DNA of 64,000 nt from Nemertoderma westbladi (lineage: Eukaryota > Animalia > Xenacoelomorpha). The notes under the pieces are model-generated. The model had not been told where the DNA came from. It did no database searches and saw only the letters and a program-made list of their open reading frames with translations. The DNA lies in the NCBI GenBank assembly GCA_032718475.1, contig JAUCBJ010007289.1:124001-188000 (forward strand), written 5' to 3'. Positions 26,452-64,000 of the stretch are shown in pieces (position 1 is the stretch's first letter; each line of letters begins with the position of its first letter). The translations under genes and the position numbers were made by a program.

Positions 26452-26555
26452 ATCGAACTCCTTTTATTCCAAACCGCCCAAAAACCTTAAGTGAGTACAT
26501 CGACCGTCTGGATGACCCCGCCCCAAAATCTCATAATGGCCATGACAAACCACAA

Positions 26556-27698
26556 ATGACGACAGGAACGACAGCGCGAGAAACAAAGAATATGGACAAC
26601 TTACCTGTAAAATCACTGAAAGTAATAACCTACAACTGCCAAGGCTACAGCAGAAACCGACACTACATTAACATGTTACTAAGCACGGAACACCCCGACA
26701 TATTGATACTCCAGGAGCACTGGCTTGGGCACAGAGAAACAACCTTTAATTTCGGTAAAACGCAAATGAACAAAAATTACTCATGTAAACCAGGTCAATA
26801 TACCGTTGCCATCGGGATGGACAACGGCAAACCACGAGTTAGAGGCGAAGGTGGTGTTGCTTTTTTCACTAGGAACGACATCACACCTTTCTGTACGTCT
26901 TTGGAAACCAACTCTGATCGAATTGTAGCCATGACCTTAGACAACATGTACGACAGCAACATAACAGTAGTAGGACTGTACATGCCATACAACAGCGGAG
27001 AGACATATAGCGAAATGAACTACATACAGGAATGCGGCAAACTATCATCACTACTCGACGATGCTAAGCAAAATGGAAACGAGCTCCTGGTAGCAGGCGA
27101 CATTAATGGAATCCTCCCACACCACAATCAATCAAATAAGAAATCCTTCGGCAAGTTGTTCACCGACAATATCACAGAACCGTTTCAGTTACAAACCACA
27201 AACAACGCACCAATAACCACAGGTGGACATGCAAGCTTTTTCTTTAGATCAAAGAACAAGACCATCCTGCGAGAGTCACTGATAGACTACATCACTAACA
27301 CCACAGGCATAGGAAACAGGCTTTCTACAACCCATACCTACAAACCAACCTTCGACAACATATCAGATCATACACCAATTATGTCCACGTACAAACTACC
27401 AGCATACACCGACAACCAACATCTACCACCACCTTCTAAACTCAGCAAATGCCGTGTTTTCCTATTTAACAAGGCAACAGATGAGGAAAAGAAACAATAC
27501 AAGAAGCAAATTGAACGGGCCCTTCAAAATATCAACAACACAAACAATATAGACAATTCCACAACAACAAACCAGATGGCGGATCTCATCACAAACATAA
27601 TACTACAGGCCGCAAAATCCCACATTCCTTCAATAGTGCCAAAAAAACTAAACAAATGGAAAAGAAGATGGAAGGACACTTCAAAACCACCACAGTAA
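26556..27698 (+). pseudogene. LINE A ORF2 apurinic-like endonuclease domain
   Basis: Motifs VITYNCQG, DILILQEHWL, GGVAFF, VGLYMP, VAGDING, IDYI, SDHTPI. Confidence 0.92.
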
Positions 27699-27822
27699 AA
27701 CACAGCAGACGCCAACGCAAATAGAAAAATCCCTACAAAGCCTTCAGCAGAGACGAAGCTGCAAAAGACTCGCCCATGAGGCATACAAGCAACACATCCT
27801 AAGCTTAGCTGAAAACTGCAAA

Positions 27823-30122
27823 TTGTCACCCGAAAAATTCTGGAACACCTTAAAAGATGAGGAACAACAGTCGTCTAACATAGCCAACACAAACTCCGAC
27901 AACATATATCGCCACTATAAAGCCTTCTTCGAATCAGAGCGAAACAACAAAGAGGAAATAGACACAAACACACAACAACGCACACAAAACGCTAGTGAGC
28001 CCATCCAAAAGATCACCCCCACCAGGTCGACGAAGCAATAAAACTGCGGAGGACACCAAATCTCTGGATGGCACATTCATAAGAATGCTACGCCGGGTTC
28101 ATTGTGTCAAGTACAATGCACACATCTCCAACCAGACACTATATAACATTGGAGGTGTCTCATTGGTTCCCCCAAGCTTGACACTAGAACAAAATCGCCT
28201 CCGCTTTGCAGGACATTGCTTTCGCCGTGAGGACCAGCCAGTGAATAATCTTGTACTTTGACAGCCTCATGGAGTGAATAAGCATGGTGGACAGCCCATG
28301 ACTTTCTTGAGACGCATCTTAAAGGACACTGGCCTTAAAGATGCGGATGATCTAGCAAATGTCATGGGTGATAGGGAGTTGTGGCGGCGCAATTTTGTCG
28401 ACAAGCCGGCACAGCATTCTTAAAAATGCAGCTGCAATGCAGCATGCCGATCCTAGTAGTAAGCAATAAAATCTCTCAACAAACGTAAATCGGCCGACAT
28501 CAACAACCTATCTGCCGAACACCTCCTACACGGCAGAACAGTACCACTACTCACCCAATTCCTTGCAGACCTATACAACATGATGCAGTTAACCAATACT
28601 TTCCCTGACAACCTATGTACAAGTTTACTAATCCCACATCTGAAGGGAAATAACCGCAGTAAACATCACGCCGATAGCTACAGAGCGATATCTATTCTCT
28701 CCATTCTGGTAAAACTCTGGGAAACAATAGTCATGCCGCAATTCACAAAAGAAAAACCAAGTGACCTCCAGATGGCGTACAAAAAGGGTATCAGTAGTGA
28801 AATGACATATTCCATGTCAAACAGGCTCATTAAACGCTTCACCAATGGCGGATCTACCATTCACATGCTAGCAGAATTCATCACAGAACACTTTTCGAAA
28901 AGCTACAAAAAACAGACATTAACAAACGACTAATTAATCTACTGGAAGCATATTACCACAACTCAACCGCCCACATGAGAACAGGCAGAAGGGTGTACAC
29001 CGAACCTATCAAACTCGGCAAAGGAATACGGCAAGGAGGCATACTATCTGCCTGGCTCTTCAATTTCTACTTACAAGAAGACCTCTTCGAGACCCTAGGA
29101 GAATCTGGGCTAGTACTACATTTCGGCACAGAATCGTACCCGGCCCTTGGTTACGCCGACGACCTATTGTTGCTAGCAAACCTTAAGGATGATCTCCAAC
29201 AACAAATCGACATATGCACCACGTTCTTTGCCAGAAATGGCCTCACCATAAACACAAAAAAATCGCATTACGTAAGATGTACCGGTACGCAACCAAAAAC
29301 AACACCAATTGAAGGTACGCAACCACAAACAACACCAATTGAAGGCTACACCATACAAGTAGGATCAGTTTTCCTACACGAGGAGGCCAGCTGTAAATAC
29401 CTAGGTTTACCACTTCCAGGTACACCGCAAACGATCGAGACCACATAACCAAACGCTGCTGGTGGAACGTATCAAGGATGCGATCACGGGGCCTAACAGC
29501 CCACGACGTACCTCTACAAATCACCAAAAAAAACTGGAACACAATCTGCCTCCCGTCTATCGCATATGGTATTGCAAATGTGGATGACGCCTCTGTGACC
29601 AAACTATCAATAGTAATGCGAAAGGCAATGGGATCGATCATTGGCGTGGGGAACTACGTCACAAACAACACCCTACACAATCTGTTGCGATGCGACGACC
29701 TGGAATCAATCGTCGCACACAGCAGATGTAGACTCCTGTACAGCGCCGTCAACTCAGGAAACATAAAAATTGCACACCTCTACACAACACTGCTCAGCCA
29801 ACGCCTATGCGATACCTACACAGAACCAACTTTTGTCGAGTACTCCATTGCGAGTTGGAGGAGTAACCTACCCACCCTACACAGCATCGTAACAGCCTCC
29901 TACAACATAAAACTGGTGATCAAGGGCTCACGAAAACACTGCAAGCCCGTCCTGAGCACCAAGTACTGTTTCAACACGTGGTATCTCGAAAGTATCCTAA
30001 ATATTCCAAACGCAAACTACTCCATAAAGAACCAATGCATACGAGACTACTACAAACTGCCGACACTCGCGCGAACAACCAAACAGGTTTCACACGGACT
30101 CACGTTCAACTCCACCACATAA
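27823..30122 (+). pseudogene. LINE A ORF2 reverse transcriptase and C-terminus; frameshifted, interrupted and internally deleted
   Basis: Motifs EAIKSLNKRKS, SYRAISILSILVKLWE, LQMAYKKG, GIRQGGILSAWLF, YADDLLL, KYLG. The LDxxKAFD motif is absent near 28870. Confidence 0.9.
28044..28460 (+). mobile_element. 5'-truncated RTE-like LINE 3' fragment inserted into LINE A
   Basis: Encodes RLRFAGHCFRREDQPVNNLVL…RILKDTGL…MGDRELWRR and ends in a TAGTAGT tail. Flanked by an 11-bp TSD AAGCAATAAAA (28033-28043 and 28461-28471). Removing it restores host QVDEAIKSLNKRKSAD. Confidence 0.9.
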
Positions 30123-43002: not shown

Positions 43003-46000
43003 ATGAGTGTCTCAGAGAAGGAGGCACTAGAAGACAGCTATGAGACGGCGGCAGGACCGCCGACTGACGATAGCGTTAATATTACTGTTGACGACAATGC
43101 CGACTATGACGATGCAGCGAGCGACGCTGACATAAGTGAACAGGAGGACGAGACAGTAACTAGTGAGGAAGAACCACCAGAGGTATTAGTATTAGGATCC
43201 CCTACCGCTACTGTAAGGAAGGATTGTACAGCAACCCGGCCATAGGTGAGTGATAGGGAGGGTAGTGTAGCAGAAGCGAGAGCCAGGAGCCCGGTTTCCA
43301 GACCTGTGGGTATGGTAAGTGCCGTGGTCCCAGCGGCTGTAAGGAGTACCCGTAGTTCCCGAAATAATCCTTCAAGTCCACCAAGTGTGAGTCAGGTAAG
43401 CGAAAGAGAACTCGAAATCGCGATAAAGAAGAAACTTCGCGCGCATGCCGGACATATAACTCGGACGGCGGACAAGGTAAGGAAGATGTTAGCCGACTCA
43501 GCGAACATCGGAAGGGAAGGGTTAGTAGAGATTGGAAAGGGATACAACTCAGCGTTATTCAAGCAGACGGAGGAGCTTGCAGTCCTAGCAAAGAAGGAAG
43601 TAGAGTCTCAGTCGAGCAACGTGGCGACGAGGATTTACGACAGGGTTTTAGCAGCCTTGTTGGAGCACCGCGCGTAATCGGAGCGATTTTGACGAGTTAG
43701 GACGGAGAACTGGCTGCTATGGGCATCACAAGCGCAGGCGACTCAGGTGAGTGACGCAGAGTCGAGAGATTTAGTGGAGTGGGAAGAAACGCAAGATAAG
43801 GAGGAGCGCCGTTATCAGCGGGAAGTTACCAGCTGGTTGATGCAGAGTGGAGTGGTGGTACCGGGTCAGGTGCTACCGACGACGGAGAACATTCAACAGA
43901 GAACGTTAACTCCACCCGATGACGCATCTAGAGACAGTGGCGATTCCCAGGTTAGTCACGCGCGAGGGAAAGTTATATGTGCTAGATCCCTCGTTTCTCA
44001 CAACTCGGCGGAGGAGAGAAGACGCCAACTGGACGAACAGCAGGCAGAAGTTTTGCGTGCATCGGAAGCACGGAAGGAAGCCGAGCGGGAATGGGAGCGC
44101 ACACGTAAGTTAGACGCAAAGTTGCGAGAGTTGGAAGACAAAGGTAAGCGTGAGCAAGCACAGGAAGAACGAGAACTCCAACTTGAACGCGAACGCAAAG
44201 AGCGCGAACTCCAACTCGAACGCGAACGCAAAGAACGCGAACTCCTACTCGAACACGAACGCGAAGAATGCAAACTCCAACTCCAACGCGAACGGGAAGC
44301 TAAGGAACGCGAGCAAAGAAGACGCGAACGCCAACTCGAACGCAAGCGCAAGGAGCGCGAACTTGAGCTCGAGAGGGAGCGACGGGCGTTGTATGAAGAA
44401 AAGGCGCGAGTGGAAGAAGAGAGCGCAGCGAGATGAGCGAGGGAAGAAGAAGAACGTAAACTGGCGCAGTTGGAAAGTGCGAGATTAAATTTAGAGAGCA
44501 AAGAACGGACCAGGACGGCAAATGAAATCGCCGAGAAGGGGATGCGAATGATCGAAGAATGTGGAGCGAGTGTAGGGACTGAGTTGCGAGAACTGTTCGC
44601 ACTACAGAAGGCCGAACAGGGAGCGAGAACTCCGACCACACGCGAGTCAACGACGACCAGAATTCCTATACCCGGTCCAGCTATTATGAGTACACGGATC
44701 GCTAAACCGTTCTCTACATATCGCACACCAGTTGGTATTAGTGCTTCACCTATCGCGCAGAATCCAGCGCATCATCGCACCGCACCACTATACACCGAAC
44801 GAGACAATGAAGAGTTTAGAGGAGAAACTCCGACGGGCCGAGTATTGGGCGAACCGAACCCGCGGGTTTGGAATACGCGGACGGAGCGCCGACCCAGTTC
44901 GACGGAGAACTTCCGGGTTAAACTGGAAGAGGGATCATATGAGAGACAGCGGATTACTCAGATAGAGCCGACTATACAACAGAACCCTAGCCAGGAATTT
45001 ATTACGAGGGATGAGTTAAGTGCTAGTTTAGCGGAAGCTATATCACCGCACATCCAACCTATAACGGACATGCTTAGTAACCTACGGTTAAAGGAAGCAG
45101 CCCAGGTAAGAAGTAATTCTAATCCTAGCAGGCCTGAGTTAGATAAAGTCCAACCTAGTCAACGAGTACGTATATCGGAGGCAACTATACCACATAGACC
45201 TCAGGTAAGGACGCCTGTCCCGACTATCCATAATCCCGATTTCGAAAATTCAGCCGAAAGGTTTATTCAGGATGCTTGGGTCAGGGCCTCGGCGCGCAAA
45301 CCAACACGAGCGCTAAGGACTGACACAGAATCGAGCGATGAAGAGAAAGACATGAGACGTCAGAAGTCCCGAAACTATAAGGAAAGAAGGACGGACGCGG
45401 AGCAGGTAAGTTTGAACCACCGGGAAAGGACCAGACTTAACAACCCTGCGGAACTAAACCATTTGTTAACCCGGAACGACGCAACCCTTAGGGACATAGG
45501 TAAGTTTGCTGCTAGGCAAGGACTGCCGACGCAACAACCCCAGAAGTTTATGGGTAACCACAAGCACTGGAGGACTTTCAAAACCTATGTCGACGAGCAG
45601 CTAACCAACAGCACCTTTACTCCCAACGAGAAGTTCAACTATTTGCTTCAGATGCTCTATCGAGAACCTAGAGCCATTGCTGATAACTTCGTCGGTAATG
45701 AAAGGGCATTTGAGTTGGCAATGAAGACGCTTAGCGACATCTACAGGAATAAAACCAAGATGGCACAGTCGATAGTAGAAGACTTGGGTAAGGGCGGAAG
45801 GATTACAACTCCGTTAGAGCTGTTGAACCTAGCGAACGCTATTTCGAACGCATTAGACATCTTGAGGACGGTGAATCTACCTCATCATGGTGATCACGCC
45901 GAAGTTTTGAAGAGCGTAATAAGACGTTTAAACATGCGTTACAGACAGAAATGGCGCAAATTAGAGAATAAGTTGGAGGGTCAAGGTAAGGTGTTGACAC

Positions 46001-49000
46001 TTCAACATATTCATGATATGATAGCCACAGACGCAGTAGCAGAGATGAAATCAAACTTCTCAGAGGAGAATATGAGAGAGTCTAAACCTGTTACCAGTAA
46101 GTCTATGGTAAGTTTTGACGATGACAGGACCACTGTGACATTTAGCTCAGTAGACAGATATAATTCGAGTACCCCAGCCTTTAGATCAGACTCGCGAGTA
46201 TGGTCAGGTGAGCGGTTAGATAGACCTAGGTTAAAGCAACAGGAGTTGCCGGATGGATTCGTAGGTTGCCAATACTGTTTACTAAAGGAGGTAAGATCTG
46301 ACGACCATAAATTAGATAGTTGCAGACGGTTCAAAGAATTAAATTCGGAACAGAGAAGAGTTCAAGTGCGGACGTTGGACACCTGTTGGGCATGTCTTGC
46401 GCCAGGTCATGTACGGCGGCAGTGCCCGAACAGCAAGGACGGATGCATGGAATGCGGCAGACTACATCACAAGTTGCTACATGCGGATTTCCACACCCCA
46501 ACGGACCGTTACTTACAGCGAAATCCTCACAGGAAGGGGAGCAAAGAACCCGTATTGATAAGAAGGAATACGTATACCGGCATTCAGGACGATGGTTACC
46601 AACCAGGTTCGTCGGACGCGGATGGCGAGTCGAGCGCGAGAGAGGTGACCTGCCAAGGTTTCACTGCGGATAGTTCATCAACCAGCGCGCGAACGTATTT
46701 ATCATCGGCCACATCGGAAATATTTAGCGTGATTCCGGTGAAACTTACTGGAGATAAGGGATCGAAGCGAATATATGTGATGTTGGACACTGCGTCCACA
46801 TTATCGTATATCGACGAGGAAGTGGCGAGAGCCGTTTCTAGCTTCCAGGACGCAGAGGAGATCCAAATAGAGTTGAAGTCTATGCACGGGGTAGGAGACC
46901 TCAAGGGACACAGAATTTCGGTAGAACTAGACTCCCTACTTCCAAGAGACCAACATACTCGACAAGAACAGAGAGCTTTGCCATTGGACAGATTCAAGTG
47001 TCTAGCCATGAAGGGGTTCGGCAGGCAGTTAGGTAAGGTGCCACCGATGAGTCCCATAGCACAGGAGTATTTTGACAAACTCAGAATACCCAGACACCAG
47101 GTAGGTTATAGGAATGTTTCTATGTTGATTGGTTCAGAACAGCTGATCGCACACCAGATATGGGAAACGAGACCAGCTGAGCCGCATGTAAATGGACTAC
47201 ATGCCCATAGGACTATACTAGGTTGGTATACAAGAGTACCCATGCCTTATGAGTTTACAGGTGGCGACAAGCCAATAGATAGATACGACGAATTACAGCC
47301 TATAACTGAACCACCGTTAGTAGAACCACCAGACATTGACGAGTTTAGGAGAGCCTGTATTCGATCGAGTCCATCTTGATAAACTTCTATATGGACGACG
47401 GATTGGTGTCCAAGGACACAGCAGAACAAGCCATACAAGTGGCTCACGGCCTGCAGGAGTGCTTGGCTACAGGGGGTTTCCCTCTGACCAAGTTCACTAC
47501 GAACTCGGAGGCCCTATTAGAGTCGTTCCCGGTAAAAGATCGCGGGAGCGGAGACATAGAATTGGGGGTAGAACCCATCCCCATGGCGCGAGTACTGGGA
47601 CTCGCTTGGAACCCGAACACGGATAAATTCCAGGTAAGAGTTAGGTTTGAGCCCAGTAGCCCAGACAAAGTTTTGACAAAGAGAATTTGCTTATCGACGT
47701 TAAGTAGACTATTTGACCCGATGAACTTTATCAGTCCGGTAATATTACAGGCACGAGCATGCATGAGGAAAATTTGGTTGGTTGTCCGACTTAGAGTGGA
47801 ACGAACCAATATCTCCTATACATGCAAAGCAGTGGAGAGAGTGGGAAGCCGAGTTGCATCTATTGAAAAATATAGGTGTACCCCGTTCCTACTTTCCGAA
47901 TCAGCTGGTATTCCCAGCTGATCTCGAACTCCATCTATTCAGTGACGCAAGTGACACCGGCTTCGGTATGGTAGCCTACCTTCGCCGAGAGGTGAGTCAG
48001 GATAAATTTGAGACGGCTTTTGTGACTTCTAGATCAAAGACAATGCCGGTCAAATATATGACTGTCCCTCGTGCAGAGTTACAGGCGGCAGTAGTTTCAG
48101 TTGAGGTAAGTAAGCAGATAACAGAGGAGTTAGACACGACATTGACCTTATTCTATTGGACGGACGCATCCTTAGTGTTAGTATACATTGCGGCCGACAA
48201 TATTGCACTAAAGACATTTGTGGCCAACAGACGCACTCAGATCGTTAACTTTTCGATGAAGGAACAATGGAGACATTGTCCGGGAGTGTTGAACCCGGCC
48301 GACATAACTTTGAGAGGTGCAATGCCGGCGGAATTCTGTCAGGAAGAGTCTCAAGAGTTTTGGTTGCATGGACCTGATTTTCTAACGAGGACACAGGAAC
48401 ATTGGCCAGAGCGACTAAAGATAGTGACCAATCCGATGCCTGAAGATGCAGAAGTCAAAGTGGAGAAAGTCTCTAAGTCAAAGTCTAAAGCCAAACTCAA
48501 GTCATTGGAGCGGCCTGAAGAGTCATTGGAGCGGCCTGAAGAGTCATTGGAGCGGCCCGGAGACCTGTCAGACCTACAGACTTACGTGACTACTAGGTCC
48601 GGAAGGGTAAGTTATGACATAAAATCACCCTTACAGACTAAACCAGAGTCACAATTGGTAAGTGACGGACAGAAAATGACCGACAAAATGGAGCCTTTGG
48701 TTTCCAAACCTGCGGGTTTGGATTCGAAACTTCCATTAGTTAGCGGACAACCGTTGCTGGCATTAGAGCCATGTAGTATTTATGACAAATTACTAAATTC
48801 GTCTGCCTCTTGGCTGACAATTTGTAAAAGAACTGCGTGGTTAAGCCGATACATTTCGTACCTTTGTATAAAACATTTTGAACATTTGGGAGAACAAATG
48901 AGCACTAATAGTGAGCGAATTCGGAAATTGAAACAACCTCTGACAGAGGATGATATTGATCAAGTGGAATTAAAGCATTTGAAGCACTATCAAATGTGTG

Positions 49001-50155
49001 CCTTCCCAAAAGAATTCTATCTATTATCGGCTCAACGACCAGTTCTCTATAAACCCCTTAGAAAATGGAGTCCATTAATCCATAAGGGTTTGATTTGTCA
49101 TAGATCGAGAATCCAGACTGTCGACATAAACTCACAGTTTAGGTTCCCAGTGATAATCCCTAGTCACCCAATAGAATTGCAAAGAGCGATTCTATGGGAT
49201 ATACACAAGAGGTTGCATCATGCGGGAAAGTTACACTGTTTGTCGGCAGCGAGACAGCGATTCATTCTATTGCAGCCAAGCAGGGCAGTCGGCACTATGT
49301 ATGACGCCTGTCTGGTTTGCAAGAGGGTGAATGCCAGAGTATTGGAACAGGAGATGGCTGAACTCCGGGAAGTGAGAGTGCAGGCATATGACCCACCCTT
49401 TACGAACACAGGGGTGGATTGTTTTGGTCCGATTGAGGCAAAGAGTGGACGGCTGACCCACAAGCGATGGGGCCTGCTACTGACATGCATGGCTAGTAGA
49501 GCCATACATATTGAGCGTGTGGCAGACATGTCGACCAAATCTCTGCTCCTTGCCTTAAAGAGATTTATGGCCAGGAGAGGACTAGTAAAGGCGTTCTACT
49601 CCGATAAGGGTACACACTTTGTTGGAGGGAACAGCGAGTTAAACGCGGCTCACAAAGCAGCACAGAATAAAGAAATCTCTGCAGCACTTTTGCCGCAAAG
49701 AATAGAGTGGAGATTTAATACTCCAGAAAGTCCTTGGAGAGGAGGAAGTTGGAAGCGTTTAGTTCGCTCTGTAAAGCAGGCCATTGCCAAAACGTTGCCT
49801 GTAAACAAACAACTTACCGACGACGAACTGGTCACAGCTTTCATCGAAATCGAGCATACACTAAACTTGAGGCTGATAGCTATGTTGCCAGACGGTGTTG
49901 CATTAACGCCAAATCATTTGCTAATGCAGAGTCCAGCATTTCTTGTGCCGGCATCAGAACCCGTTAGTGCCGACCTATATAGTCGTAAGAGCTGGAAAAT
50001 AACACAATTAGTCGCGTACACATTCTGGGAATATTGGCGGGAATACTATCTTGCCACCATATCCACCAGATCAAAGTGGTACAAAACGGTTCGGAGTCTC
50101 CAAAGGGGAGATTATGTATTGATAACCGAGCCTATTGTCAAGAGAAAGTACTGGG
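43003..50155 (+). pseudogene. BEL/Pao element 1 gag-pol polyprotein, inactivated
   Basis: One frame from 43003 to 47379 with in-frame stops (43243, 43675, 43690, 44434). E/R-rich coiled coil; PQKFMG capsid motif; three Zn knuckles (CQYC…H…C, CWAC…H…C, CMEC…HH…H); protease LDTAS; RT FYMDD; RNase H FSDAS/RAELQAA/WTDA/NPAD; integrase VDCFGP/SDKG/WKRLV. Confidence 0.93.
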
Positions 50156-50692
50156 TGTTAGCTTATTCAATCCCGCCAACACCCCATAAAGTTATTAGCC
50201 GATAAGCAATATTGGGAGCCACGAGATTGGGTAATTAACCAACTCGCGCCATCCCAATAAGAATGGGAAGGAAGCACACAATAGAGGGTCAGGGGCCAAA
50301 CCCCTAACCCAAGGAGAACAAGTGGAGTGAACGGGAATACTCCACGGGGCGCCAACAAGGGTATTAACCAATCAGAGGGGGGAATGGCATCGATTGAGTA
50401 GCAGTAAGGCCACCGTGCAATATAACCAATAACCTACTAATCAGTGATTCAGTTATCTCAGTGCAGCAGTGCTAGCGTAGGGTACAGCCAATTAGTTTAG
50501 TTAGGGGATCACGGGACTTTAGTTACCGTATCCCGCCTTGTACACATTCACAACATATCTATATCTTATAACCTCCTATTATACACCGAACTTCAGAACT
50601 CAATTATCTTTACTTCACCCTTACACACGGCGGGGACGCGTGGACTAAATACCACACCGGATAAATCGGGATCCCTCCTGGATCCCGTCACA
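50156..50692 (+). repeat. 5' LTR of BEL/Pao element 2 (537 bp)
   Basis: TGT…ACA ends, boundaries confirmed by the homologous solo LTR at 33373-33958. TATAA near 50421 followed by TCAGT initiator-like motifs. Confidence 0.85.
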
Positions 50693-50777
50693 GTAACTAA
50701 AACCAAGCTGCCGCCCTAGTTAAACTCTAAGAACTACCGGTACAACCTAGCTAGCCGAATCATCAGCCACAAACGAG

Positions 50778-53700
50778 ATGAGTGAATCGGGCGAGACACC
50801 GACGCGGACCCCGGACGAAGACCTAACGATCCGCGAGGCCGCGACCAAGCGATACAGGCCCACGACGCCGGAGCCATCGATAACGGGCGAACCGGAAGTC
50901 CAGGACGAGGAGGGCCTGGAACCCGAAGTCGAGCCAAGAGAGAGAGAGAGCGAGACGGAGGGAGAGGGAGATGAGTCGACACGGAACGGAGAACGGCGCG
51001 CCGATGTCGCCGGCCAGCTACCGGCCGAGGGCGACGAGCGGCCCACCGAAACGGCGACGGTGGGGCCGACGGTGCGACGCCGGACACGAAGAGACGGAGG
51101 AGAGATCGGTACCGATGTCGCCGGCCAGCTACAGGCCGAGGGCGACGGACGGCCCACCGGAACGGCGACGGTGGAGCCGCCGGTACGACGTCGAACCCGG
51201 AGGGACGGAGGAGAGGTCGGCGACGAGGACGTCGGGGTTTCTGACCGACTTCGACAGGCCTACAACGCGACCCGGAAGCTGATAAACGACGCCAAGAAGG
51301 AAGGGGCGAAGATAGACGAGGTGAGACTGAGAAAGCGACTAGGTGAGTCGGATAGACACTTAAATTACCTGATACGTTTTGGGCAGAGAGAACTAGCCGG
51401 GGAGAGAGCAAATGGAATTGCAGGCGAACTGTTTGAACTATGGGAGTGTGGGAGTATGGGACCTAGCGTAGCACCAGTGTACATAGGGCCATACTTGGTC
51501 GATGCCCGGGGAGTGAAACCAGTGGGTTGGAAGGGACCTGAAGAGGGCGAATCCGAGGTTAACACCGAGGATTCGGCCTCGTCGGTCGGAGAAAGCTCCG
51601 AAAAGGGGGAGAAAGTTAGTAGGTCGGGAAGGCGGGGGAAGTCCGTCGTAACCGATAAGTCTGCTACATCCTCCGCGAAAGAAAGAGCGGTGAGAAAAAT
51701 AGGGGCCACATACCGTCTCAGCATGGCAGAGCAAGGTCAGAGAGAAATGAAGGAACGGCTAGAGGAGGGAAGAGTGCGGTTAGAGAGGGAAACGGTATTG
51801 CTTAGAGAAACCGGAGAAAGGGCCGAAAGGGCTTTGAAAAGCCTAAGGGAGTATGATGAGATAGAGGAAAGGGAGTGTAGAGAGCGTGAAGCGAGAGAGG
51901 AAAAGGAACGCGAGGAGCGTGAAGCGAGAGAGGAAAAGGAACGCGAGGAGCGTGAGGCGAGAATGGAAAAGGAACGCAAGGAGCGTGAGGCGGAACGCAA
52001 GGAGCGTGAGGCGGAACGCGAGGAGCGTGAAGCGAGAGAGGAAAAGGAACGCGAGGAGCGTGAGGCGAGAATGGAAAAGGAACGCAAGGAGCGCGAGGCG
52101 GAACGCAAGGAGCGTGAGGCGGAACGCAAGGAGCGTGAGGCGGGAATGGAAAAGGAACGCAAGGAGCGTGAGGCGGGAAAGGAAAAGGAACGCAAGGAGC
52201 GTGAGGCGAGAAAGGAAGAGGAACGTAAAGAGCGTGGGGCGAGACGAAGGGAGAGCATTAAGAGTGCCGCAGACTCGGCCATCAAGGACACCCAGGAGCG
52301 TGAGGGGATAGTGGCAAAGGGTGAAAAGGAGCACAAGGAATTAAAGGAACGGCAGAGTGAGTATGCGAAAAATATAATTAGAGGGACGCACGAGTTGGAA
52401 TACGTGCGAGTGGGACCGCCGTCTGAAACTGGGGCCCGCTCGAGTATTTTTGAGGAGCCGAGGGCCGTAGACGTATTTGTTAATACTCCACTGACAGGGA
52501 CCGCACGACAGACTCAAGACTGGTGCGACCGTACGAGCGGGGGGGGGGTAATAATAATAATAATGGTACAGTAGACGTTGTTAATATTAATAGTACCGTA
52601 TGGGATAACGCTAATCAAACCTTTATTACAGGAAATACTTTGCCTGGTGGTAGTAATTTAAATTTAAATCAGAACGATCCCAGTGTTAATGTAGAAAATA
52701 ATCCTAATATTGATGTAGTTACGCAAAATAATTCAAATAATCAAAATAATAACTCGAATTCGGACCTACAAAATAACTTAAATAACGCAATTACACAGAA
52801 TAATTCGAATAATTCAAATAATGATCTTAGCCCGAATTTACAAAATAATTCAGATAACGTAGTCGCGCAGAATAATACAAATGATTTTATTTCAAATGAG
52901 CAAATTAGTTCCGTTTCCAATATGGGTGCTATTAATGTAAATACGTCTGGCCTACATAGTAGACAGGTTAGTAGACAGGGAGCAGAGGGCCTGGTAGGCC
53001 ACGTAGTTAGTAGACAGGGAGCAGAGGGCCTGGTAGGCCACGTAGTTAGTAGACAGGAAGCAGAGGGCCTGGTAGGCCACGTAGTTAGTAGACAGGGAGC
53101 AGAGGGCCTGGTAGGCCACGTAGTTGGTAGGCAGGGAGTAGAGGGTCCAGTAGGCCACGCAATAGCAGAGGGAGAGGCGAGGGTGAATAGACCCGACTGT
53201 GGTAGGGTTGATGTGTCGACTAGAGAGATATATAGTAGCGGGGCGAGAGGTAGCGAAGTTAGATGTAGCGAGTGGGGGGGGGGGCTACGAGCACCCCACA
53301 ACAGAAAGTTAGCGGCGAGAAGGGGGGGGCAGAGAGTGTCCCACAGCCGTCAGCGGACAATGCGAGGGCCGAACAAGGTAAACCGCAACAACCGGCGACG
53401 GAAAGTAATAGGGGGATTGCGAGTATCCCCAGCGACGTGCGATCGAGCAGAGAAAGACAGGTTGACGTCGCGGGAGGGCAGACGGAGCGTCGAGCCCGAT
53501 CAGAGGAGGAAAGAAGAACAGTGGGGTTTAACCGGGAGGTCGACGAGAGATCTCGTGAGCGGGAATATTCCACTGATAGAAGAAGAGAGGAAGAGAGTAG
53601 TAGAAGTATCGCCGCAAAAGATAGAAGAGCGAGGACAGACAGCGAGCCGTCGGTAGTCGAGATGAGAACGGAGAGTCAGTGGGGTCGGACTCCGGGAGAT

Positions 53701-56700
53701 TGCCGTCGCCCCGGAGGGATGCGATCCGATGAGACGCATTACACGCCGAGAGAGGGGTACGCGATGTACCGGTACGAAGATGAAAACGGTGGAGAGGGGG
53801 GTCGAAGAGAAACTTTCCGACGGAATATACCTACCGATCGAGAATACGGTAGCCGCAGGGAGGATTGTTCGAGAAGAATAAACTTCGATCCCGAGCAACA
53901 CATGCAGACTGTGGGGCATACTGTAGGTCTTACTGCACATACCGTAGGCCATACTGAGAGAGGCGATGTAGGCGATAGGATAGCGCGGACAACGGGATTA
54001 AACCCGGAAGTCGCGGAATACATACCGGCGGGTAGGCCAGAAGCTGATAGGCCTATACCGGTACCAGCACAGCAGTATGACTACAGCATGCAGGGACATA
54101 ACATATACCCAGGGGAGGGGGGAATTATTGCGGATAGGTGTATGGGCCCCAACATACTAACATCAACCCCAGTACCAGACATACCGGTGGGGGGGGGACA
54201 GGGTGACATTCCCCCATCACAATATCAACAATATACCCCGACAGGAACAAGAACAACGAGACCCCTAGATGAAAACAGGTCGTGTGATACAGACATATGG
54301 AGGGGGCCGCTACCCCCGATGACATATCCGAGTCAGAGAAGATCAAGAAATAGGACGGACGAACCGCACCAGACAAGGGAAACTATACAGCACCCGTCGA
54401 ATCCATTAGAAGCGCAGGCAATGGGGATGGCCACGTTGATCGATGCGTTGAAAACGAGGATCGAATTACCACCCGTGGAACCGTTCAAATTCGATGGGAG
54501 CAGGCCGGAAGAATACTTACAGTTTCGGCGAATGTATAGTAACGAAATACTAACAAAAAACTTGACGCAGGCAGAGTGCCTAAAGTATCTACAAGTGTAC
54601 ATGGGAGGCCCAGCATACGATATCGTGAGGCAATACCAGGGAATAGAGGGCGGCTTCACGACAGCATGGCGGGCACTGGATAGGGAATACGGGCACCCGG
54701 CCAAGATCATCAGGCAGACGCTGAGAGGCATAACATCGGGTGGCCTACAGGATAATCCCGTTAGCATTAAGACGTTTGCTAACAAAGTCGAGAAGGCGCT
54801 GATCGTGCTGAAGACGCTAGACGCGCCATATGAACTCAACGCGTCCAATAACATCACCACGATAGCGCAGGCACTACCGAGCTGGCTGCGCAACAAATGG
54901 AGGAAGATCGCTTTCTCCACCCGAGACAAAAAGGGTGCGGAACCAGGTTTAGAAGAAATGTCAAACTTCTTAAATTACGAGGCTGAACTAATAACGGACC
55001 CAGTTTATAGTGAAGATAGCCTGGGAAAGGGACCAAAGACAGATCATTACAGGCCCAAACCAGAGCACAATACATCGAACGCGTTACCGAGACTCAGGCA
55101 ATCATTGCCATATGCAGCGACGCAGGGGACTGCAAGTCCACAGACAAGCGAAGATAAGACAACATCAAGGGACGGACAGGGGAGCAATAACAACATGAAT
55201 AAACATAACCCCAGTACGTCCAGTAGGTCAAACCCAGTCAATAAGAATAGTAGGGACTTTGGTACGAATATAACTGCGATACGCAATGCATTATATAAAG
55301 AGGGCTACGACCCAAAGAGCAAATGCCAGTTACACGCAAATGCGCTTCATAAAACCATGAACTGCAGGTACTGGCAGGCGCTACCGAGGCAAGACCAGAT
55401 AGATTACGCGTCGAGCAATAAAATCTGCTCGCGATGTGTGAAGAGTGGACACAAGGCCAGGGAATGCCAAGAGAAACCGGTCAAGTTTGGCCAAAGGAGA
55501 GGCCAGACGATGGCAACGAGCACAGTAGGGGCGAAGAAGAGAGGAACAGTGCTACTTGGAGTAGTACCAGTACGAGTGATCGGGGAAGGCAATCGATCAG
55601 TAACAACACTAATGCTGGTTGATGGTGGAGCTGCCTTCACATTAGTTGAGGAATGGGTAGCCGAAGAAATAGGGTTGAGAACGAGGCCAAGCAGGATGGC
55701 GGTGACAACCATCTCTAGTAAAGACGAGATCCTAGAGATGAGGACAGGACGGTGCGCAATTGCAGCAGTGGCACCAGGATGCGATTATGGGGCAACCATC
55801 GACCCCATCCAAGTAATAGAGTCAATTAACATCAATGCCAGGCGGCCAACCAACATCGAGGTCGAGCAATACAAATTCCTGGATAACATTGACTTCTCAA
55901 TCCCAAACGTGGACGTTAGGAAGGTATCCATCATAGTAGGCATGGACTGCCCAACGGCCCACGAGAGAATGCAAACGGTCTTCGGCGAAGACAAGCAGAG
56001 CGACCCGGTGGCCATATTAACGCCATTCGGGTGGACGCTGAGTGGTCCAATTAAGAGCAAGATACCATTCAGGATGTCGGAGACATCAGGATGCATGTTC
56101 GCGGGAACAATGCAGGAAATGGGTGACGAGGGAGCAGAGGAGCAGCTTAAAAGACTGCTCAGACAGGACTTCGAGGGACTGAAAGAGACCGGGGTCGGGA
56201 CCTCGGTAGAAGACAAGCAGGCTTTACAAAGTGTGGAGGAATCGATGACGTGTGATGAGGGGCGGTATACAATAGGAATGGTGTGGAAACTACCGAAGAT
56301 ACCGCTACCCGATAATAGAGGGATGGTACTCACGAGACTCCGCAAGCTGAAACAAACACTACAACGGAGCCCCGAGAAGAACGAGTACATTCACAAAACC
56401 ATTAAGAAGTACGTCGAGAAAGGATGGGCCGTGGAGTTACCGGTCGACGAACCGAACACGGACAGGACATACTACCTGCCACTCCACGTAGCTTTAGACC
56501 CAAAGAAAGGTAAACTTAGGATGGTAGTCGATGCATCGGCAAAGACCGACGGAAAGTGCTTAAACGATTACCTACTAGAGGGCCCAAACATATACAATTC
56601 GGGCATAGAAGTACTACTTAGATTTAGGAATGGGAAACACGCCTTCACGTGTGACATAGAAGGCATGTTCAACCAAGTCCGAGTAACAGAGGAAGATAGC

Positions 56701-59529
56701 GATAGTCAACGCTTCTTATGGTATAACGGCGAAGAAGAACCGCCTATAATACCGGCATATAAGATGGTAGTACAAAACATGGGGGCCAAGTCGTCCTCAT
56801 TTACGACGACTATGGCAGTGAGAGACACGGTAAAGGGGAAGGAGGATAGATATAGCAGTAGGGCCGTCGATATGATCAGACGCGGTTTCTACGTAGACGA
56901 CGGCATGGAGTCTGGAAATACGGTTGAGGAGATACTGGAAACAGGGCGCGAGGTTCGCGACATCCTGAAAGGATCCGGCTTCAACCTGACCAAATTCCAA
57001 TCCAGTTCAGAAGAATTTATCAGGGAAATAGAAGACAAGAAACCAGAATCGACCATGGACAACCCTACAACAGCCAAAGGACAGGACATGGCGATTAAGA
57101 GAACGGAATCCCAGCAGAAGGCGTTGGGAATCGTGTGGGATAGAAAAACAGACGAACTGAAGTATCAGCTGAGCCAGGAGGGCGCAGACACCCATACGAA
57201 GAGGGGTTACGTATCGTATATAGCAAGGATATACGATCCCTTAGGCCTAGCATCCCCATTACTAGTCACGGGGAAACAGATACTCAAGAGAGTATATAAG
57301 TTGAAGGATGAGTGGGACGTAGAGGTACCAGAAGACATCAAGAAACAGTGGAGCAAATGGACAGGAGACTTGGAGAGGATGGGAACATACAACATGCCGC
57401 GAGTGTATTTCCCGGACGGGAACATGACGAATCTGGACCTACATATGTTCTCCGACGCGTCGTTAGAGGCATACGGAGCGGCACTCTATTTAGTACAACG
57501 AGAGGGGCCTCACAAGCCCAGATTAGCCTTTAGCAAAGCTAAGTCAACGCCGCCAGATTCAGCATCTGTTCCCAAGTTAGAATTGACAGCTGCGAGACTA
57601 GGAGTTAGAGCCACAGCCTACCTAGTGGATACAATTCCCAACATAGTGGAGACACACTACTGGACGGACTCCATGGTAGTGCTTGGTTGGCTACACAACG
57701 AAAAGACGAGGTACCCGATATTCGTCGCGAATAGAGTGGACGAAATAAGGGCGAGCACAGAACTGGAAAGGTGGCACTACTGCCCAACAGACGAGAACCC
57801 AGCGGACTTGCTGTCGAGGGGCGTGGAACGCCACACTTTCTTAAAGAAAGAAGCATTGTGGCAACACGGGCCACAATTTCTGAGCGATAGGGAGGCCTGG
57901 CCGCCGATGAGGAAGGTGGACCCGGGCTCGGAAGTAGTATCAGAAGGAGAAGAGGGAGATTCAGAGGGAGAAGAGATATACTCCCAGATGGTGAGGGAGA
58001 TCAGGGACGTGCAACCAGGAAGGGAACTGTGCGATAACCCGACGGATAAACTCCTCAGCTACAGTTCTAGTTGGTATAAGACCAAGAAACTAGTGGCGTA
58101 CTGGAGAGCCTTTGGGAATTTCCTTGCGGGAGTCGGCAAGGACAAGAAGACCAGGACAACCATAGATCTGGAAGGAGCGGCCAAGGCAGTGATCCGCTAT
58201 GAACAACGCAAGAACTACGGCGACGAGGTGGAACGTGTCGGTAACCAACAACATCTCCGACGGGATAGCGAGTTGATCACGCTGTCGCCACAACTCAACG
58301 AGGATGGGATCCTAGTAATGAATTCTAGGGTGGGATATAACAACAGTATAGTCGTGCCACCGAAACCCATCATCATTCCCACAGGATCGCCTATAGTCCA
58401 CCAGATCATATGGGACTCCCACAAATCGATACTGCATGGGGGCACCAACCGAACCCTCACAGAGATAAGGAGGACCTATTGGGTCAAACAATTAAGGAAG
58501 AAGGTGAAAGCGGTAGTGGGACAGTGTCAGACCTGCCGACGAGCGAAGAAGGAGCGAGCCGTACAGGAGATGGCGCCACTACCGGCGAGTAGGGTAAGAC
58601 AGCACGACCCGCCATTTACGCATTGCGGTGTGGACATGTTCGGGCCGATAAAGATCAAGGTGATGCGACACACGGAGAAACGCTACGGTATTATCTTCGT
58701 ATGCAACAATACGCGGGCGGTAGGGATAGAACTCGCCCAAGATGCAACCGCATCAGCTTTCATTAACGCCTTAGAAAGGTTTAGGGACCGCAAAGGTGGG
58801 ACGATCGCAGTGATATACAGCGACAACGGCACCAACTTTGTGGGCGCAGAGAATGAGATGGCAGAGGCCTTAGACATCTTGGAGGGAGAAGAAGTCAGGG
58901 CGGCCATGAGAAGACGACAAGTGAAGTGGGAGAGAAGGACGCCGTATGCACCACATACATTAGGATGCGTCGAGAGACTCGTGGGCAGTTCAAAACGTCT
59001 AATGACGAAGTTGATGAACACCCACATGGTCACTGAAGACGTCTTACGGACAGTACTTGCGAACTGCGAGGGGATCATTAATAGCAGACCGCTATACCCG
59101 GAGAATGATGACCCTGAGTCATTAGACGTGTTGACGCCTAGCCATTTCCTGATGGAAAGGCCAGCGACCATAGATATGCGGGGTGTAGACCCAGATGATA
59201 TACACTCCCGCCAAAGTTGGAAAGTAGCTAAAGCAATTAGCGCAGAGTATTGGAGGAGGTGGGTAGAAGAATACCTGCCCATGCTCCATAAGCGAAGCAA
59301 GTGGAGGAAGCCAAACAGGGAGTTGAGAGAGGGAGATCTCGTAATCGTCACGGATGATACTATCATCAACAACCAATGGCGGTTGGCGAGAGTTGTAGGC
59401 ACCTACTCCGACGAGGACGGAAGAGTCCGATCGGTAGAAGTGCGGATAGGTGGAAAGATAGGTGCGAAAGACAGAAAAACCTACAGGAGAGCAGTAGGTA
59501 AATGCTGTCTTCTAGAAGGGGCACCTTAA
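50778..59529 (+). CDS. BEL/Pao element 2 gag-pol polyprotein (~2900 aa if two poly-G frameshifts are corrected)
   Basis: ORFs 50778-52574, 52523-53656 and 53272-59529 overlap at G10 (52539-52548) and G11 (53274-53284). Motifs PFKFDG, CSRC…H…C, LVDGGA, YYLPLH, VVDAS, DIEGMF, FYVDD, FSDAS, KLELTAA, WTDS, NPADLLSRG, HHCC, VDMFGP, SDNGTNF, CVERLV are intact. Confidence 0.93.
51875..52240 (+). repeat. Coding tandem repeats (EREAREEKERE / EREAERK) in the gag N-terminus
   Basis: 21- and 33-bp units GAGCGTGAGGCG…GAACGC encoding a charged helix. Confidence 0.85.
52966..53160 (+). repeat. 39-bp coding tandem repeat (VSRQGAEGLVGHV, ~5 copies)
   Basis: GTTAGTAGACAGGGAGCAGAGGGCCTGGTAGGCCACGTA repeated. 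Confidence 0.9.
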
Positions 59530-59639
59530 ATTAGAGTTAGTGTGAAGTTTAGTCGTCCAAGTTTTGGACTGAGGGGGGTGGGATTGAGGGCGAGACGCCC
59601 TTCCCACACAAATAAAATAAAATAAAAAAATAAAAATAA

Positions 59640-60320
59640 AAGTTAGTTAGTTAGTAGGTACGTAGTACCTAGAGTTAGTTAGTTAGTAGGTACGTAGTAG
59701 CTAGAGTTAGTTAGTTGATAGGTACGTAGTACCTAGAGTTAGTTAGTTAGTAGGTACGTAGTACCTAGAGTTAGTTAGTTGATAGGTACGTAGTACCTAG
59801 AGTTAGTTAGTTAGTAGGTACGTAGTACCTAGAGTTAGTTAGTAGGTACGTAGTACCTAGTTAGAGTTAGAGTTAGAGGGTACGTAGTACCTAGTTAGAG
59901 TTAGAGGGTACGTAATGCCTAGTTAGAGTTAGAGTTAGAGGGTAGGTAGTACCGATAGAGTTAGAGTTAGTAGGTACGTAGTACCTAGGTAGAGTTAGAG
60001 TTAGAGGGTACGTAGTACCGATAATTAGAGAGTTAGTAGGTACGTAGTACCTAGTTAGAGTTAGAGTTAGAGGGTACGTAATGCCTAGTTAGAGTTAGAG
60101 GGTAGGTAGTACCGATAGAGTTAGAGTTAGTAGGTACGTGGTACCTAGTTAGAGTTAGAGTTAGAGGGTACGTAGTACCGATAGTTAGAGAGTTAGTAGG
60201 TACGTAGTACCTAGTTAGAGTTAGAGTTAGAGGGTACGTAGTACCGATAGTTAGAGAGTTAGTAGGTACGTAGTACCTAGTTAGAGTTAGAGTTAGAGGG
60301 TACGTAGTACCATTAGTTAG
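59640..60320. repeat. Tandem array of ~20 units of ~28-34 bp with palindromic core GGTAC-GTA-GTACC and AGTT/AGAGTT linkers
   Basis: Seen directly between the pol stop and the accessory ORF. Confidence 0.95.
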
Positions 60321-60825
60321 AAAGAGAGAGTAAGAGGTAAAAGGGGTAAAAATAGGATATAGATATTAGATAGCAGTAAGTAGAGTTAGTAGCGAGAGGG
60401 GGGCATATGAGTGCAGCTGGATAAATCGTGTGGCCACACGACGCATACTGCTGTACTGCATAGGCCCACTGAGTAGGCCAGAATATGGATCAGAGAGAGA
60501 ATAGAATAAATCCATAGGCAGTAGTAAGTAGTAGGACAGTAGAATCAAAGCAAAATAAATAAATAAATAGAATAGGGCTAAAATCGGAAAATAGTGGTAA
60601 CACAAGGAAAGTCGTTCTAGAACATAATAAAAGTAACGGACGGAAATTGTAAATTAGGCTGGTTTACTAGCTCCGAAATTAATTAGATTAAATTAAGCTT
60701 GAAAGGCGCAGTTAAGTAGAAAAGTAGGCCATTATCGAACTGTAGGAAACATCTTAGTACATCACTCATCTGTATTGCGCCTTGGTAAGGCACCACCCTA
60801 CAGGTGAGCGAGTGTAGTGTTCGGA

Positions 60826-63360
60826 ATGGCGAGTAAGCTGATCAGGAAGAGAAAAGCGGAGTCAGGAGGAAAAGAAATATTGGTGGATTTCACCGAAAGA
60901 CACCCGGAGGAGAAGACGAGAGGATACTACGAGAGGTTGGAAAGGGGTCACGCGACACGAGCGCTGCAGGATCACTTCCGGGAGGCGCACGAACAGCGGT
61001 TGGTCGGGACCTACGGGACGCCGTCGCTGGACAACGCGATCTTCCAACACTTCCACTACGTAGTGAAAGGAGACGAGGCGAAGTTCGGGATTCCGAAGTA
61101 TCCGAGGTAATCGCCGAGGAAGGACTGGAAAAGATTCATAGAGTCCGTCAACAGAGGAGGATATATGATCCTAGATGACGAGGGAACCGTGGAAGACGAA
61201 GCGGGTTCGAGACGAGGAACGGCAGGGTCGGCCAGGACCATACTCTTGCATTTGGCTGCGCCAAATGGGGACATCTTCTTATTCGACCTAGGGACGTATG
61301 GGAAGAAGGACGGGCCGAAATTAGACCGACTGCCGAAAGCGGTACAGGTCTTAGTAAGAGAGAAGTCGACGACGAAAGTGGGATCGGCGATTCGCGAGGA
61401 CGCGGAGAGGATCATCGGTCCGGACGCCACCAACCTCCTGGATATGCAGAAAGTCTTTATGGCTATGACGGCACCGGATGGATTGGGGGTGGTCGAGAAC
61501 TCAGGCCAATGCGGGGCGGTGGCGATGGGCCAATTATTGGGGCTCGTATGCCACAAACCAATGGATTGGGGGAAGTTTAGGGAAGAATACGGAGCAGAAC
61601 TAGCGAACTCGCTGAAGTGGGGAGCGAGACCGGGAAAGCAGGAGGTATATCAGTTTCGCAGAGGAGCGATAAAGGTATATCAGAAGCGATATATCCTGCA
61701 GGAGGACTGGATGATGATAAGTTTACTTAACTTATTCATGACCGTAGTTATCGAAAGAGAACCAGGGGCATTTCTGTTATCGGGATCACCCCTAAGCTAC
61801 AGGAGAGCCTTTAAGATGGCCTTTGACGGTCTGGTAGACCACCCGGGGCTGAAGGGCGAGTCGGTGTACTACAACAGCCGACATCTGGTAGATGGGGAGA
61901 CGGATACACCGTATCTGAGATGGGAGCAGCTAGAGATGGATAGACGGGAAGCAAAGCGACTGGAAGAAGTCGCTAGACGGGAGAGGATAGAAGCAGAGGA
62001 GAGGGAAGAGGAGGCCAGGACACAGAGTTATGGCTTCGAGGAACAGGCGGGTCTAGACGAACTTCATTGGACTTCGTCAGGGAGTTCGGGGGAGTCTCTA
62101 GGGCGAGAATTGGGATGGACGGTGGGATCGCCGAAACAGTCGACGTCGGGGTTGCAAACGATGCCCATACCAGCGGGCGCCGAGGGCGACCAACCGCCAA
62201 GGAAGCTAAGGGAGCTAGAGGGATGGAGAGCTACGGGCGAAAGCCAAGGCGGGAAGGGACATAGTGGATCCATCGGGATACCGGGGTTGGAGACACTACC
62301 AGAAGAGGAAGACGACGACGACGAGTTCGGAGAGATGCCGCCCATCGAGAGGATAGGCCACTCGGACACGGACTGGGTTGGCGGAAGGGTGGTGACGGCC
62401 AGTGGGGCGAGGGCCTTCTGGAACAGATCCGGCAAGCGGACCTGGGTGCACGAGGGGCCGGCGATGGATTTCGCGGGGAGCACCATCAGGTTGGGCGAGC
62501 AACCGGGGACGGCACCACGGATAGTATTCGGGGAGACGATGCCCGAGAGGGGCGGAGAGATAGACGTAAACAGGGAGAGCAACGTAGAGAAGTTCGCCTA
62601 CCAGCGACTCCATAGACCGCGGAGATCGCTTGGGACGAAGGACGAGGTGGGACGCGAGACATTGGTACTCGGCTGCGACTACTGTGGGAGACAGACCCAT
62701 CAGGAAAGCAGCTGCCTATACCGGTTCCAACGGGGAACCTTTTGTCTCTATTGTAGAGAACCAAGTCACAGGATGGGGGCGTGTCCACGGTTGCATAACC
62801 GATGTCCAAAGTGCCACTTTCGGGGACACTACGGACGCGAGTGCGACTGGATGAGCGACGAGGAGAAGTTCACGAGGTTCGAGGAGTGGGCCGACGTCGG
62901 GGCCATGACGCGCCAGCGCATGAAGGCCCAAGAGTTCAAGTGGGGTTTCTTCCTCATAAACCAGGAGACCCACATGGAAATCATAAAGCGAAGGTTACCG
63001 TTTACCTATCAAGAGGTAGCTACGGCGGCATCGTTCGCCGGAGTTATGAACACGCAACGGTACCTGGACAGGTGGACACCAGAGAACCGGAGGGAGTTTA
63101 GGGATTTCTTGGCGGAACACGTACCAAAGGCAATGAAGATGATCCTATGGGACGCCACACGAGGGAAACAACCAGGCCATTCTGAGGGGCCACCGGCGAA
63201 GCGGTATCGGGCTTTAATAACACCAGCGCCCAAGGAGCCGACGACCGGGATCAGCAAGGAAGTGGCAGCGAAGGTCCGGAAGCAGAAAGCGGATGATGCC
63301 AGAGGAGCGGTGATAACCAAGAAACGGGCCAGGGAGGAGGACGTGAGGAGGTACAGATGA
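60826..63360 (+). CDS. Accessory ORF: DEDDy (WRN/EXD/Mut-7-like) 3'-5' exonuclease domain, acidic linker, three CCHC zinc knuckles; one in-frame TAA at 61108-61110
   Basis: GYMILDDEG (Exo I DxE), TILLHLAAPNGDIFLFDL, LPKAVQVLVREKSTTKVGSAIREDAERI (Exo II), LLDMQ, LLGLVCHKP, KWGARP…QKRYILQED (Exo III-like). Knuckles CDYCGRQTHQESSC, CLYCREPSHRMGAC, CPKCHFRGHYGREC. The 97-aa and 731-aa ORFs share one frame. Confidence 0.75.
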
Positions 63361-64000
63361 GTTCCCGGAGGCGAGGGAATGAGACTGAGACTGGGACGTG
63401 GTGCGCCTGGAAGGCGCCGCATGTAACGTACGAACTATTAAGTATAAATTTAATTAATGCAAATAACTATATAAGTGCAATTCGTATGTACGTACGTAGT
63501 GATTAGCAGTAAAATACATACGTTTGGAGTAAGTACTATAGTCATACAACCTTTCTCAATTAGCTACTGGGACTGGGGGACAATTGACTATGGCACTATG
63601 GACGAGACAACTGACAATTTCACACTTCTTGAGTGCGGCGGCACGAGAGGGGGGGGAGGTTCGTCAGGAGAGATAAAACAGTCAAAGTGGACTTGAGAAT
63701 CGGAATAAGAGTGTGAAGTGCGGAGAGAGTGCGAACGCAATTCTAGTGTGGGGGGGGGGGGAATGAGAGGCTGAGTAAGGGACGAGGAGGTCCGGGGGTA
63801 TGAGAGAGTTAGGGTGAGAGTGAAGGTGAGATAGGGCGAAAGTGTTGGGGAAACAAAAATCGCGTGAAGAGGTGAGCGCGATCGGCCCGACATGAGACGC
63901 CAGGCGTAAAGGGTAGCGTTATCATACCCAGAGGGAGCGGCCCGGAAAGCCGACTCCGAGAGAAAAGATTTCCACCCCACACCCGATGCTAGATCGGGAT

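Follow-up and report, generated by a model that had tools for sequence, protein, structure and literature searches.

A candidate exonuclease and zinc-knuckle gene in the env position of a BEL/Pao-type retrotransposon of Nemertoderma westbladi

An exonuclease in the env slot of an LTR element has already been published for rotifers, as far as the accessible text of PMC5408684 describes it. There, the bdelloid Juno and Vesta LTR elements and the Athena/Terminon elements carry a DEDDy-type ORF3 with a DEED motif (Rodriguez et al. 2017, PMC5408684), for which roles in 3'-end processing or silencing were proposed, the activity being unassayed in that text; the available portions of three reviews repeat the account (PMC5718144, PMC6431247, PMC6338049). 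A second point of reference is trypanosome RNase D (TbRND), described as a DEDDy exonuclease that binds its RNA substrate through CCHC fingers in tandem (PDB 7c42/7c45; PMC7797062).

In searches of the open-access literature we found no BEL/Pao element with DEDDy cargo or with its knuckle-fused form. The main text of the BEL/Pao survey PMC3118150 lacks the word "nuclease", "exonuclease" does not occur in PMC13524379 or PMC7084138, and the accessible text of PMC554778 and PMC9094657 mentions no such exonuclease gene. The gene described here would extend non-env third-gene cargo from the rotifer elements to BEL/Pao, in a protein family that is so far unnamed and largely missed by Pfam. Early work on nematode Cer elements reportedly mentioned an exonuclease-like accessory region, which, if so, would reduce the novelty of the present gene.

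The element and its surroundings

The window is the whole 64,000-nt stretch of DNA that was analysed. Its positions 1-23800 are an AT-rich satellite in which units of 27 and 31 nt alternate and a 26-nt core occurs 533 times, adjoined by a single-exon ORF for a fibrinogen C-terminal domain on the minus strand (24174-24836; PF00147, E 1e-37). A non-LTR element in fragments, matching APE endonuclease and RT, follows on the plus strand (25155-30119), and then a second, decayed BEL/Pao element, also on the plus strand (43003-50155; DUF1759, Peptidase_A17), which is 30-33% identical to the pol studied here. This decayed element ends in its integrase tail at the start of the studied element, and its remainder is absent from the window; its DUF5641 match covers only positions 2-59 of 94. 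The studied element appears to begin at this break, at 50156, and comprises the following features.

50156-50640, plus strand: inferred 5' end, LTR/leader; begins TGTT, high read depth
50751-52574, plus strand: 607-codon ORF rich in E and R, without a Pfam match, with a G10 run (52539) in its overlap with the following frame
52484-53656, plus strand: 390-codon Asn-rich, repeat-bearing frame, overlapping gag-pol at a G11 run (53274)
53269-59529, plus strand: BEL/Pao-type gag-pol of 2086 codons, with DUF1759, knuckles, protease, RT, Peptidase_A17/RNase H, integrase and DUF5641
59641-60311, plus strand: tandem-repeat spacer of a 32-nt unit in about 21 copies, separating the third gene from pol
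60826-61107, plus strand: opening 94 codons of the third gene, beginning at its ATG, with the first strand of the nuclease domain; coding-like and alignable with relatives
61036-61875, plus strand: predicted DEDDy-type (DnaQ/RNase D-like) exonuclease domain, residues 71-350, from the family profile and predicted fold
61108-61110, plus strand: in-frame stop inside the predicted nuclease domain, breaking the present copy
62041-62655, plus strand: predicted disordered linker, acidic and Gly-rich, residues 406-610, pLDDT under 50
62674-63159, plus strand: three CCHC knuckles with a conserved helical module; no other part of the family is as well conserved
63361-64000, plus strand: 3' untranslated region with purine tracts at 63645 and 63750, high depth persisting

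The gag-pol polyprotein matches Peptidase_A17 (E 7e-40), DUF5641 (9e-24) and DUF1759 (2e-11), and its Pao-type domains stand in the PR-RT-RH-IN order by which BEL/Pao elements (Belpaoviridae) are recognised. The RT carries YVDD at 56890 and the RNase H carries DAS at 57454, in keeping with the YVDD/YVDN and DAS motifs that the accessible text of PMC554778 gives for BEL/Pao. Its gag has only two knuckle-like Cys-His motifs (55324 and 55426) against the typical BEL/Pao triple, which is typical and not universal, Tas being described as having none (PMC554778). The 607-codon ORF is probably the N-terminal part of gag. The G10 and G11 runs sit in the overlaps of the three successive gag-region frames, and these overlaps may reflect copy damage, assembly error or recoding. 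The tandem array at 59641-60311 varies among copies of the element.

An Rfam scan of 49000-64000 gave no match. The leader shows a self-priming-like pairing with the LTR, 50527-50537 with 50629-50638, and no tRNA-type primer site lies nearby; the fold of the leader does not reach significance (z -1.27, with 25 of 200 shuffles equally good). No 3' LTR is recognisable before the window ends at 64000. Paired LTRs had been named as a check when the locus was read from its sequence, and no repeat pairing the element's 5' and 3' ends occurs within the window.

The third gene as probable cargo of the element

The third gene (60826-63360) lies on the same strand as pol and starts 1.3 kb past the gag-pol stop, as the sequence-only reading had placed it. 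The "long ORF" of that reading does not survive: an in-frame stop at 61108-61110, codon 95 of 844, splits the frame into 94 and 749 codons. The remaining two frames across the same interval hold 50 and 15 stops. By codon-bias scoring, the 94 codons ahead of the stop are coding-like in the third-gene frame only, and the strand that precedes the stop codon can be aligned with relatives. The protein (P0001, 844 positions) is therefore given here as read through, with X at the stop.

Alignment and model place the stop inside the predicted nuclease domain, the structural match starting at residue 71. Because the domain begins upstream of the stop, the present copy would probably yield no folded nuclease without read-through. 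A small frame-preserving intron spanning the stop is unlikely, because it would excise a helix conserved in the family. We also rejected a restart at the next ATG, which would begin three residues ahead of the first catalytic Asp with the conserved helix absent. The gag region is spread across three frames, and therefore the present copy may be damaged elsewhere too. In one run that we guessed to be RNA, and that is possibly DNA, short pieces match both the third gene and pol.

Most likely, the third gene is genuine cargo of a multi-copy BEL/Pao-type element, as its proposed retrotransposon-borne, env-position status would have it, and codon bias, depth and strand agree on this. Its synonymous codon choice follows that of the element's pol by 0.06-0.21 bits per codon in all five segments of at least 90 codons, and does not fit the upstream BEL element (-0.05 to 0.005 bits per codon). 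Read coverage was taken from two runs of the same organism in 30 bins over 50100-64000. Every bin is covered in both runs, with thousands of variant contigs, and the mean depth of the third gene relative to pol is 0.73 in one run and 0.97 in the other, summed depth not being equivalent to copy number. The gene has no termini or RT of its own, and no second gag or pol similarity occurs past 59530.

The third gene could instead be a separate high-copy insertion or a host retrogene that came to lie behind pol by chance. The locus is a nest of insertions, a tandem-repeat block stands between pol and the gene, the window holds no 3' LTR, and no contig among those listed bridges pol and the third gene; all of these would suit such an origin. 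They have to be set against a codon bias that agrees with this pol and differs from that of the neighbouring element, a depth similar to that of pol, and a gene in the env slot, on the same strand, that brings no ends or polymerase with it. Among 30 clusters of related proteins, the longest contig measures 8-12 kb in 11, is longer in 5 and shorter in 14, and the 8-12 kb class, being of LTR-element size, is only suggestive of carriage by such elements. On balance we consider a separate insertion quite unlikely. An integrase scan found no match in viral contigs and, in the metagenome, one contig of 1459 nt, too short for the third gene.

The gene also appears to be under purifying selection. In a test of 40 variants, chosen by the tool for their support out of 2048 and not including the stop codon, all 13 in the third gene are synonymous where a share of 0.30 would be expected under neutrality (nominal P 1.6e-7), with nine of the 13 lying within 75 nt of each other and probably not independent; among the same 40, gag-pol has 7 synonymous of 11. 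A functionless passenger, captured once and now decaying, would account for the stop in the third gene and for the apparent frame breaks in the gag region. We hold this to be highly improbable in view of the 13 synonymous variants and of an architecture that relatives retain, with nuclease domains about 20-28% identical. That the third gene is real element cargo and has a DEDDy fold we regard, by contrast, as very probable.

A predicted DEDDy-type fold and a triple knuckle module

Direct searches return little. Pfam has no family matching the 749-codon part at E<=1, nor one for the nuclease part when the limit is relaxed to E<=10; word-indexed homologue searches at three settings, a PDB sequence search with the single sequence and a phage tblastn gave no matches; and locus scans were empty, both with the nuclease part across metagenome, genome and viral contigs and with the relative P0006 in viral contigs. 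An Atlas feature search led to clusters of 3'-5' exonucleases (0.94, with 171 features in common), PF01612 being present in 34% of the cluster members. The homologue search suggested at the outset proved productive when exhaustive: HMMER recovered 76 relatives at E<=0.001, of which 74 are best matched via the knuckle region and 62 have its signature in common. These relatives, clusters at 50% identity, are known here as protein sequences alone. No functional name attaches to any of the 30 clusters looked up, which come mostly from metagenome assemblies; the three that are named read "hypothetical protein".

The nuclease part emerges once the family is taken together. With the query left out, a profile was built from the N-terminal region; it matches 34 of the 40 relatives of at least 440 aa and one cluster mate, and searched against the window's protein alone it gives E 5e-30; P0043, a repeat protein of 2805 aa, was left out as a spurious match. 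The family profile aligns with bacterial PF01612 sets at 97-98% probability with all three Exo motifs in place, and the whole-family profile matches EXD2 (1.7e-11), TbRND (6.5e-11), WRN and Egalitarian (E 3e-6). The strong PF01612 match is obtained only with the family profile. For the single sequence, the bacterial profile scores a weak 4.6 bits, above all 500 shuffles, yet three of four subgroups do no better than shuffles; hhalign gives a probability of 10.9%, which none of 209 shuffles reaches, and global alignment gives nothing. PF01612 itself falls below its curated cut-off in all 43 relatives scanned, with three weak matches.

A structure model from the single sequence reached a pLDDT of 34. 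Built on a 50-row homologue alignment and no templates, the model has two confident regions and a disordered linker, with 431 of 844 residues at pLDDT >=70. Its residues 71-350 superpose on the Nibbler EXO domain with Z 14.5 and rmsd 3.1 over 194 aligned residues, and further matches include WRN (Z 13.4), RNase D (13.1), Rrp6 (12.5), TbRND (12.4), Egalitarian (12.2), NrnC/diDNase and PolA. Foldseek concurs with 35 PDB chains at E<=0.001, TbRND at the top; the fold comparison barely covered the knuckle module. Among these, the nearest solved folds of Nibbler, RNase D, Rrp6 and TbRND take RNA 3' ends as substrate, and the equally close WRN, PolA, diDNase and NrnC act on DNA.

Because the family profile matches EXD2, RNase D and WRN and the model matches Nibbler EXO, we assign the window's protein a predicted DEDDy-type fold, joined to a family-specific triple CCHC module. 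The original assignment to WRN/EXD/Mut-7/Nibbler-type exonucleases is borne out by this profile match and fold, and the HMM and structure searches proposed with it return a predicted DnaQ/RNase H-like fold. Each motif quoted at the time is present and in the stated order: ILDDEG at 61168, LHLA at 61246, FLFDL at 61276, LPKA at 61330, KVG at 61375, LLDM at 61435, WGARP at 61618, QKRY at 61681 and YILQED at 61690. So are the three exact CX2CX4HX4C knuckles, at 62674, 62743 and 62803. The knuckle module retains seven invariant Cys/His across 50 alignment rows, and its signature is its own, with no similarity to the element's gag-pol. The absence of a signal peptide and of a transmembrane segment had also been claimed; the transmembrane half stands, there being no clear segment in the 749-codon part (best 19-residue hydropathy window 1.3). 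With no such anchor, and a nuclease fold in place of a fusogen, the gene is, as first argued, not an env.

The catalytic residues deserve separate attention, as Exo III had been called atypical and perhaps catalytically altered. Exo I supplies Asp at 61174 (D117) and Glu at 61180 (E119), Exo II supplies Asp at 61399 (D192), and Exo III supplies Tyr at 61690 (Y289) and Glu at 61702 (E293), that is Y-x3-E in place of Y-x3-D. D117, E119 and D192 are in register with relatives and with bacterial members, and the window's protein has all four acidic sites and the Tyr (D-E-D-E-Y). The motif is indeed atypical, but it does not appear to be lost: Y-x3-E is in register, and the acidic column of 35 aligned relatives holds D in 16 and E in 10. 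Since relatives share the Glu, we read the Y-x3-E from the alignment as a recurrent Asp-to-Glu variant and not as a sign of death.

Thirty relatives, two of them cluster mates, could be aligned at all five sites. Seventeen keep the four acidic residues and the Tyr (12 DEDDY, 4 DEDEY, 1 DEEEY), and 13 have lost at least one with the architecture retained. In a quick and poorly resolved family tree (7 of 33 branches starred), the degenerate forms are scattered, and the window's protein groups with five relatives, four of which have Glu at Exo III (support 88, unstarred). Two departures from the common layout were seen. P0048 joins the family's knuckle module to a homeodomain (E 2e-5), and neither it nor its cluster mate P0111 (839 aa) matches the nuclease profile; P0002 has a truncated or degenerate nuclease region and two triple-knuckle modules.

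Proposed role and comparison with known systems

We propose that the third gene encodes the element's own nuclease-knuckle protein, which would bind and trim RNA 3' ends against small-RNA silencing, and by analogy with its neighbours in fold we give this reading a probability of about 0.4. Taking it as granted that the gene is real cargo with a DEDDy fold, we would place such a counter-silencing role a little under an even chance. Hypothetically, intact copies would encode a 3'-5' exonuclease of the DEDDy fold with a triple zinc-knuckle module attached, carried along with the element and made from a separate message, as is described as usual for third ORFs (PMC5408684). The knuckles would take hold of single-stranded RNA so that its 3' end reaches the active site, much as is described for trypanosome RNase D (PMC7797062). 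The target would be small RNAs or their precursors, whose trimming would blunt host silencing of the element, and relatives without catalytic residues would act as binding decoys. Mature piRNAs are 2'-O-methylated, which blocks trimming of the Nibbler type, and the substrates would therefore be limited to unmethylated precursors or siRNAs. From the alignment, 17 kept against 13 lost catalytic sites is easier to reconcile with an optional role of the conflict type than with a step that replication requires.

The main alternative is that the protein handles the element's own RNA, in binding, localisation, packaging or 3'-processing, with catalysis optional as in the dead EXO proteins Egalitarian and Exd1. 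Egalitarian matches by both profile and fold, and one matched entry, 9rw6, is a complex with I-factor retrotransposon RNA; CCHC knuckles are RNA binders of the nucleocapsid type, of which the element's gag has only two likenesses; and the 13 relatives without a full catalytic set keep their architecture. The lineage of the window's protein nevertheless retains its four acidic residues and Tyr, and the knuckle module is dissimilar to the element's gag-pol. We consider own-RNA handling possible, with odds well short of even.

The sequence-only reading had also offered primer maturation or proofreading, in which the nuclease trims a self-primer as far as the duplex of leader and LTR, or else corrects the ends of the cDNA while it is being synthesised. 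A part in processing the 3' ends of element RNA is suggested in the accessible text of PMC5408684, the exonucleases of WRN and PolA rank among the close fold matches, no tRNA-type TGG site lies past the candidate LTR ends, and the folded leader pairs as noted above. Primer trimming finds little support all the same, because the leader duplex does no better than shuffles, the LTR ends not being fixed, and because many relatives lack catalytic residues, which suits an obligatory step poorly. Self-priming of the Tf1 type, moreover, relies on RNase H cleavage. We rate this role as very unlikely.

Returning to counter-silencing, it could be carried further: the nuclease-knuckle family, at 76 clusters, might be an old retroelement-borne suppressor of animal small-RNA defence, trimming or sequestering piRNA and siRNA 3' ends with a fold borrowed from the host and switching repeatedly between enzyme and decoy. 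This wider claim we think unlikely. Animal transposons with their own enzymes against or for small-RNA pathways are seldom known. A concrete candidate is the predicted Nibbler/EXD2-like nuclease with putatively RNA-gripping knuckles described here, which a high-copy BEL/Pao element seems to keep under purifying selection. The family also supplies natural active-looking (DEDDy, DEDEy) and dead versions, suited to side-by-side assays.

Among described systems, the ORF3 of Juno, Vesta and Athena, as far as the accessible accounts go, resembles the present gene in being a DEDDy gene past pol in the place of env, with no transmembrane segment and with an acidic motif substitution. The rotifer elements are described as rotifer-specific lineages with dUTPase and DEED, whereas the present element has BEL/Pao domains, no dUTPase match and D-E-D-E-Y; by description, its triple CCHC module compares with a Cys-His-Cys motif in two Vesta ORFs. 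The Juno and Vesta lineages we take to be affiliated with Ty3/gypsy. TbRND shares the order of nuclease and then CCHC fingers, is the top Foldseek match and is matched by the profile over both domains. By description, TbRND is a cellular enzyme that trims guide RNAs in mitochondria, with four fingers and a linker of 28 residues. In the window's protein the knuckles number three, the linker runs to about 260 residues and a further helical module is present; the fusion of nuclease and fingers in the two may be convergent.

Nibbler/MUT-7, EXD2 and WRN (the PF01612 group) have the same fold and the same motif order, but identity is only 13-19%, and Exo III of the window's protein ends in Glu. MUT-7 and Nibbler are described as having MUT7-C after the exonuclease (PMC11347159), whereas here the knuckles take that place, with no MUT7-C Pfam match at E<=1. 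On present evidence, the window's protein is no orthologue of Nibbler, MUT-7, EXD2 or WRN. The env-bearing BEL/Pao elements roo, Tas, Cer7/Cer13 and Atlas belong to the same class and likewise have an extra gene past pol (in the accessible text of PMC9094657, PMC554778 and PMC13524379); the extra gene there is described as a viral fusion glycoprotein, whereas the present one is a predicted soluble nuclease.
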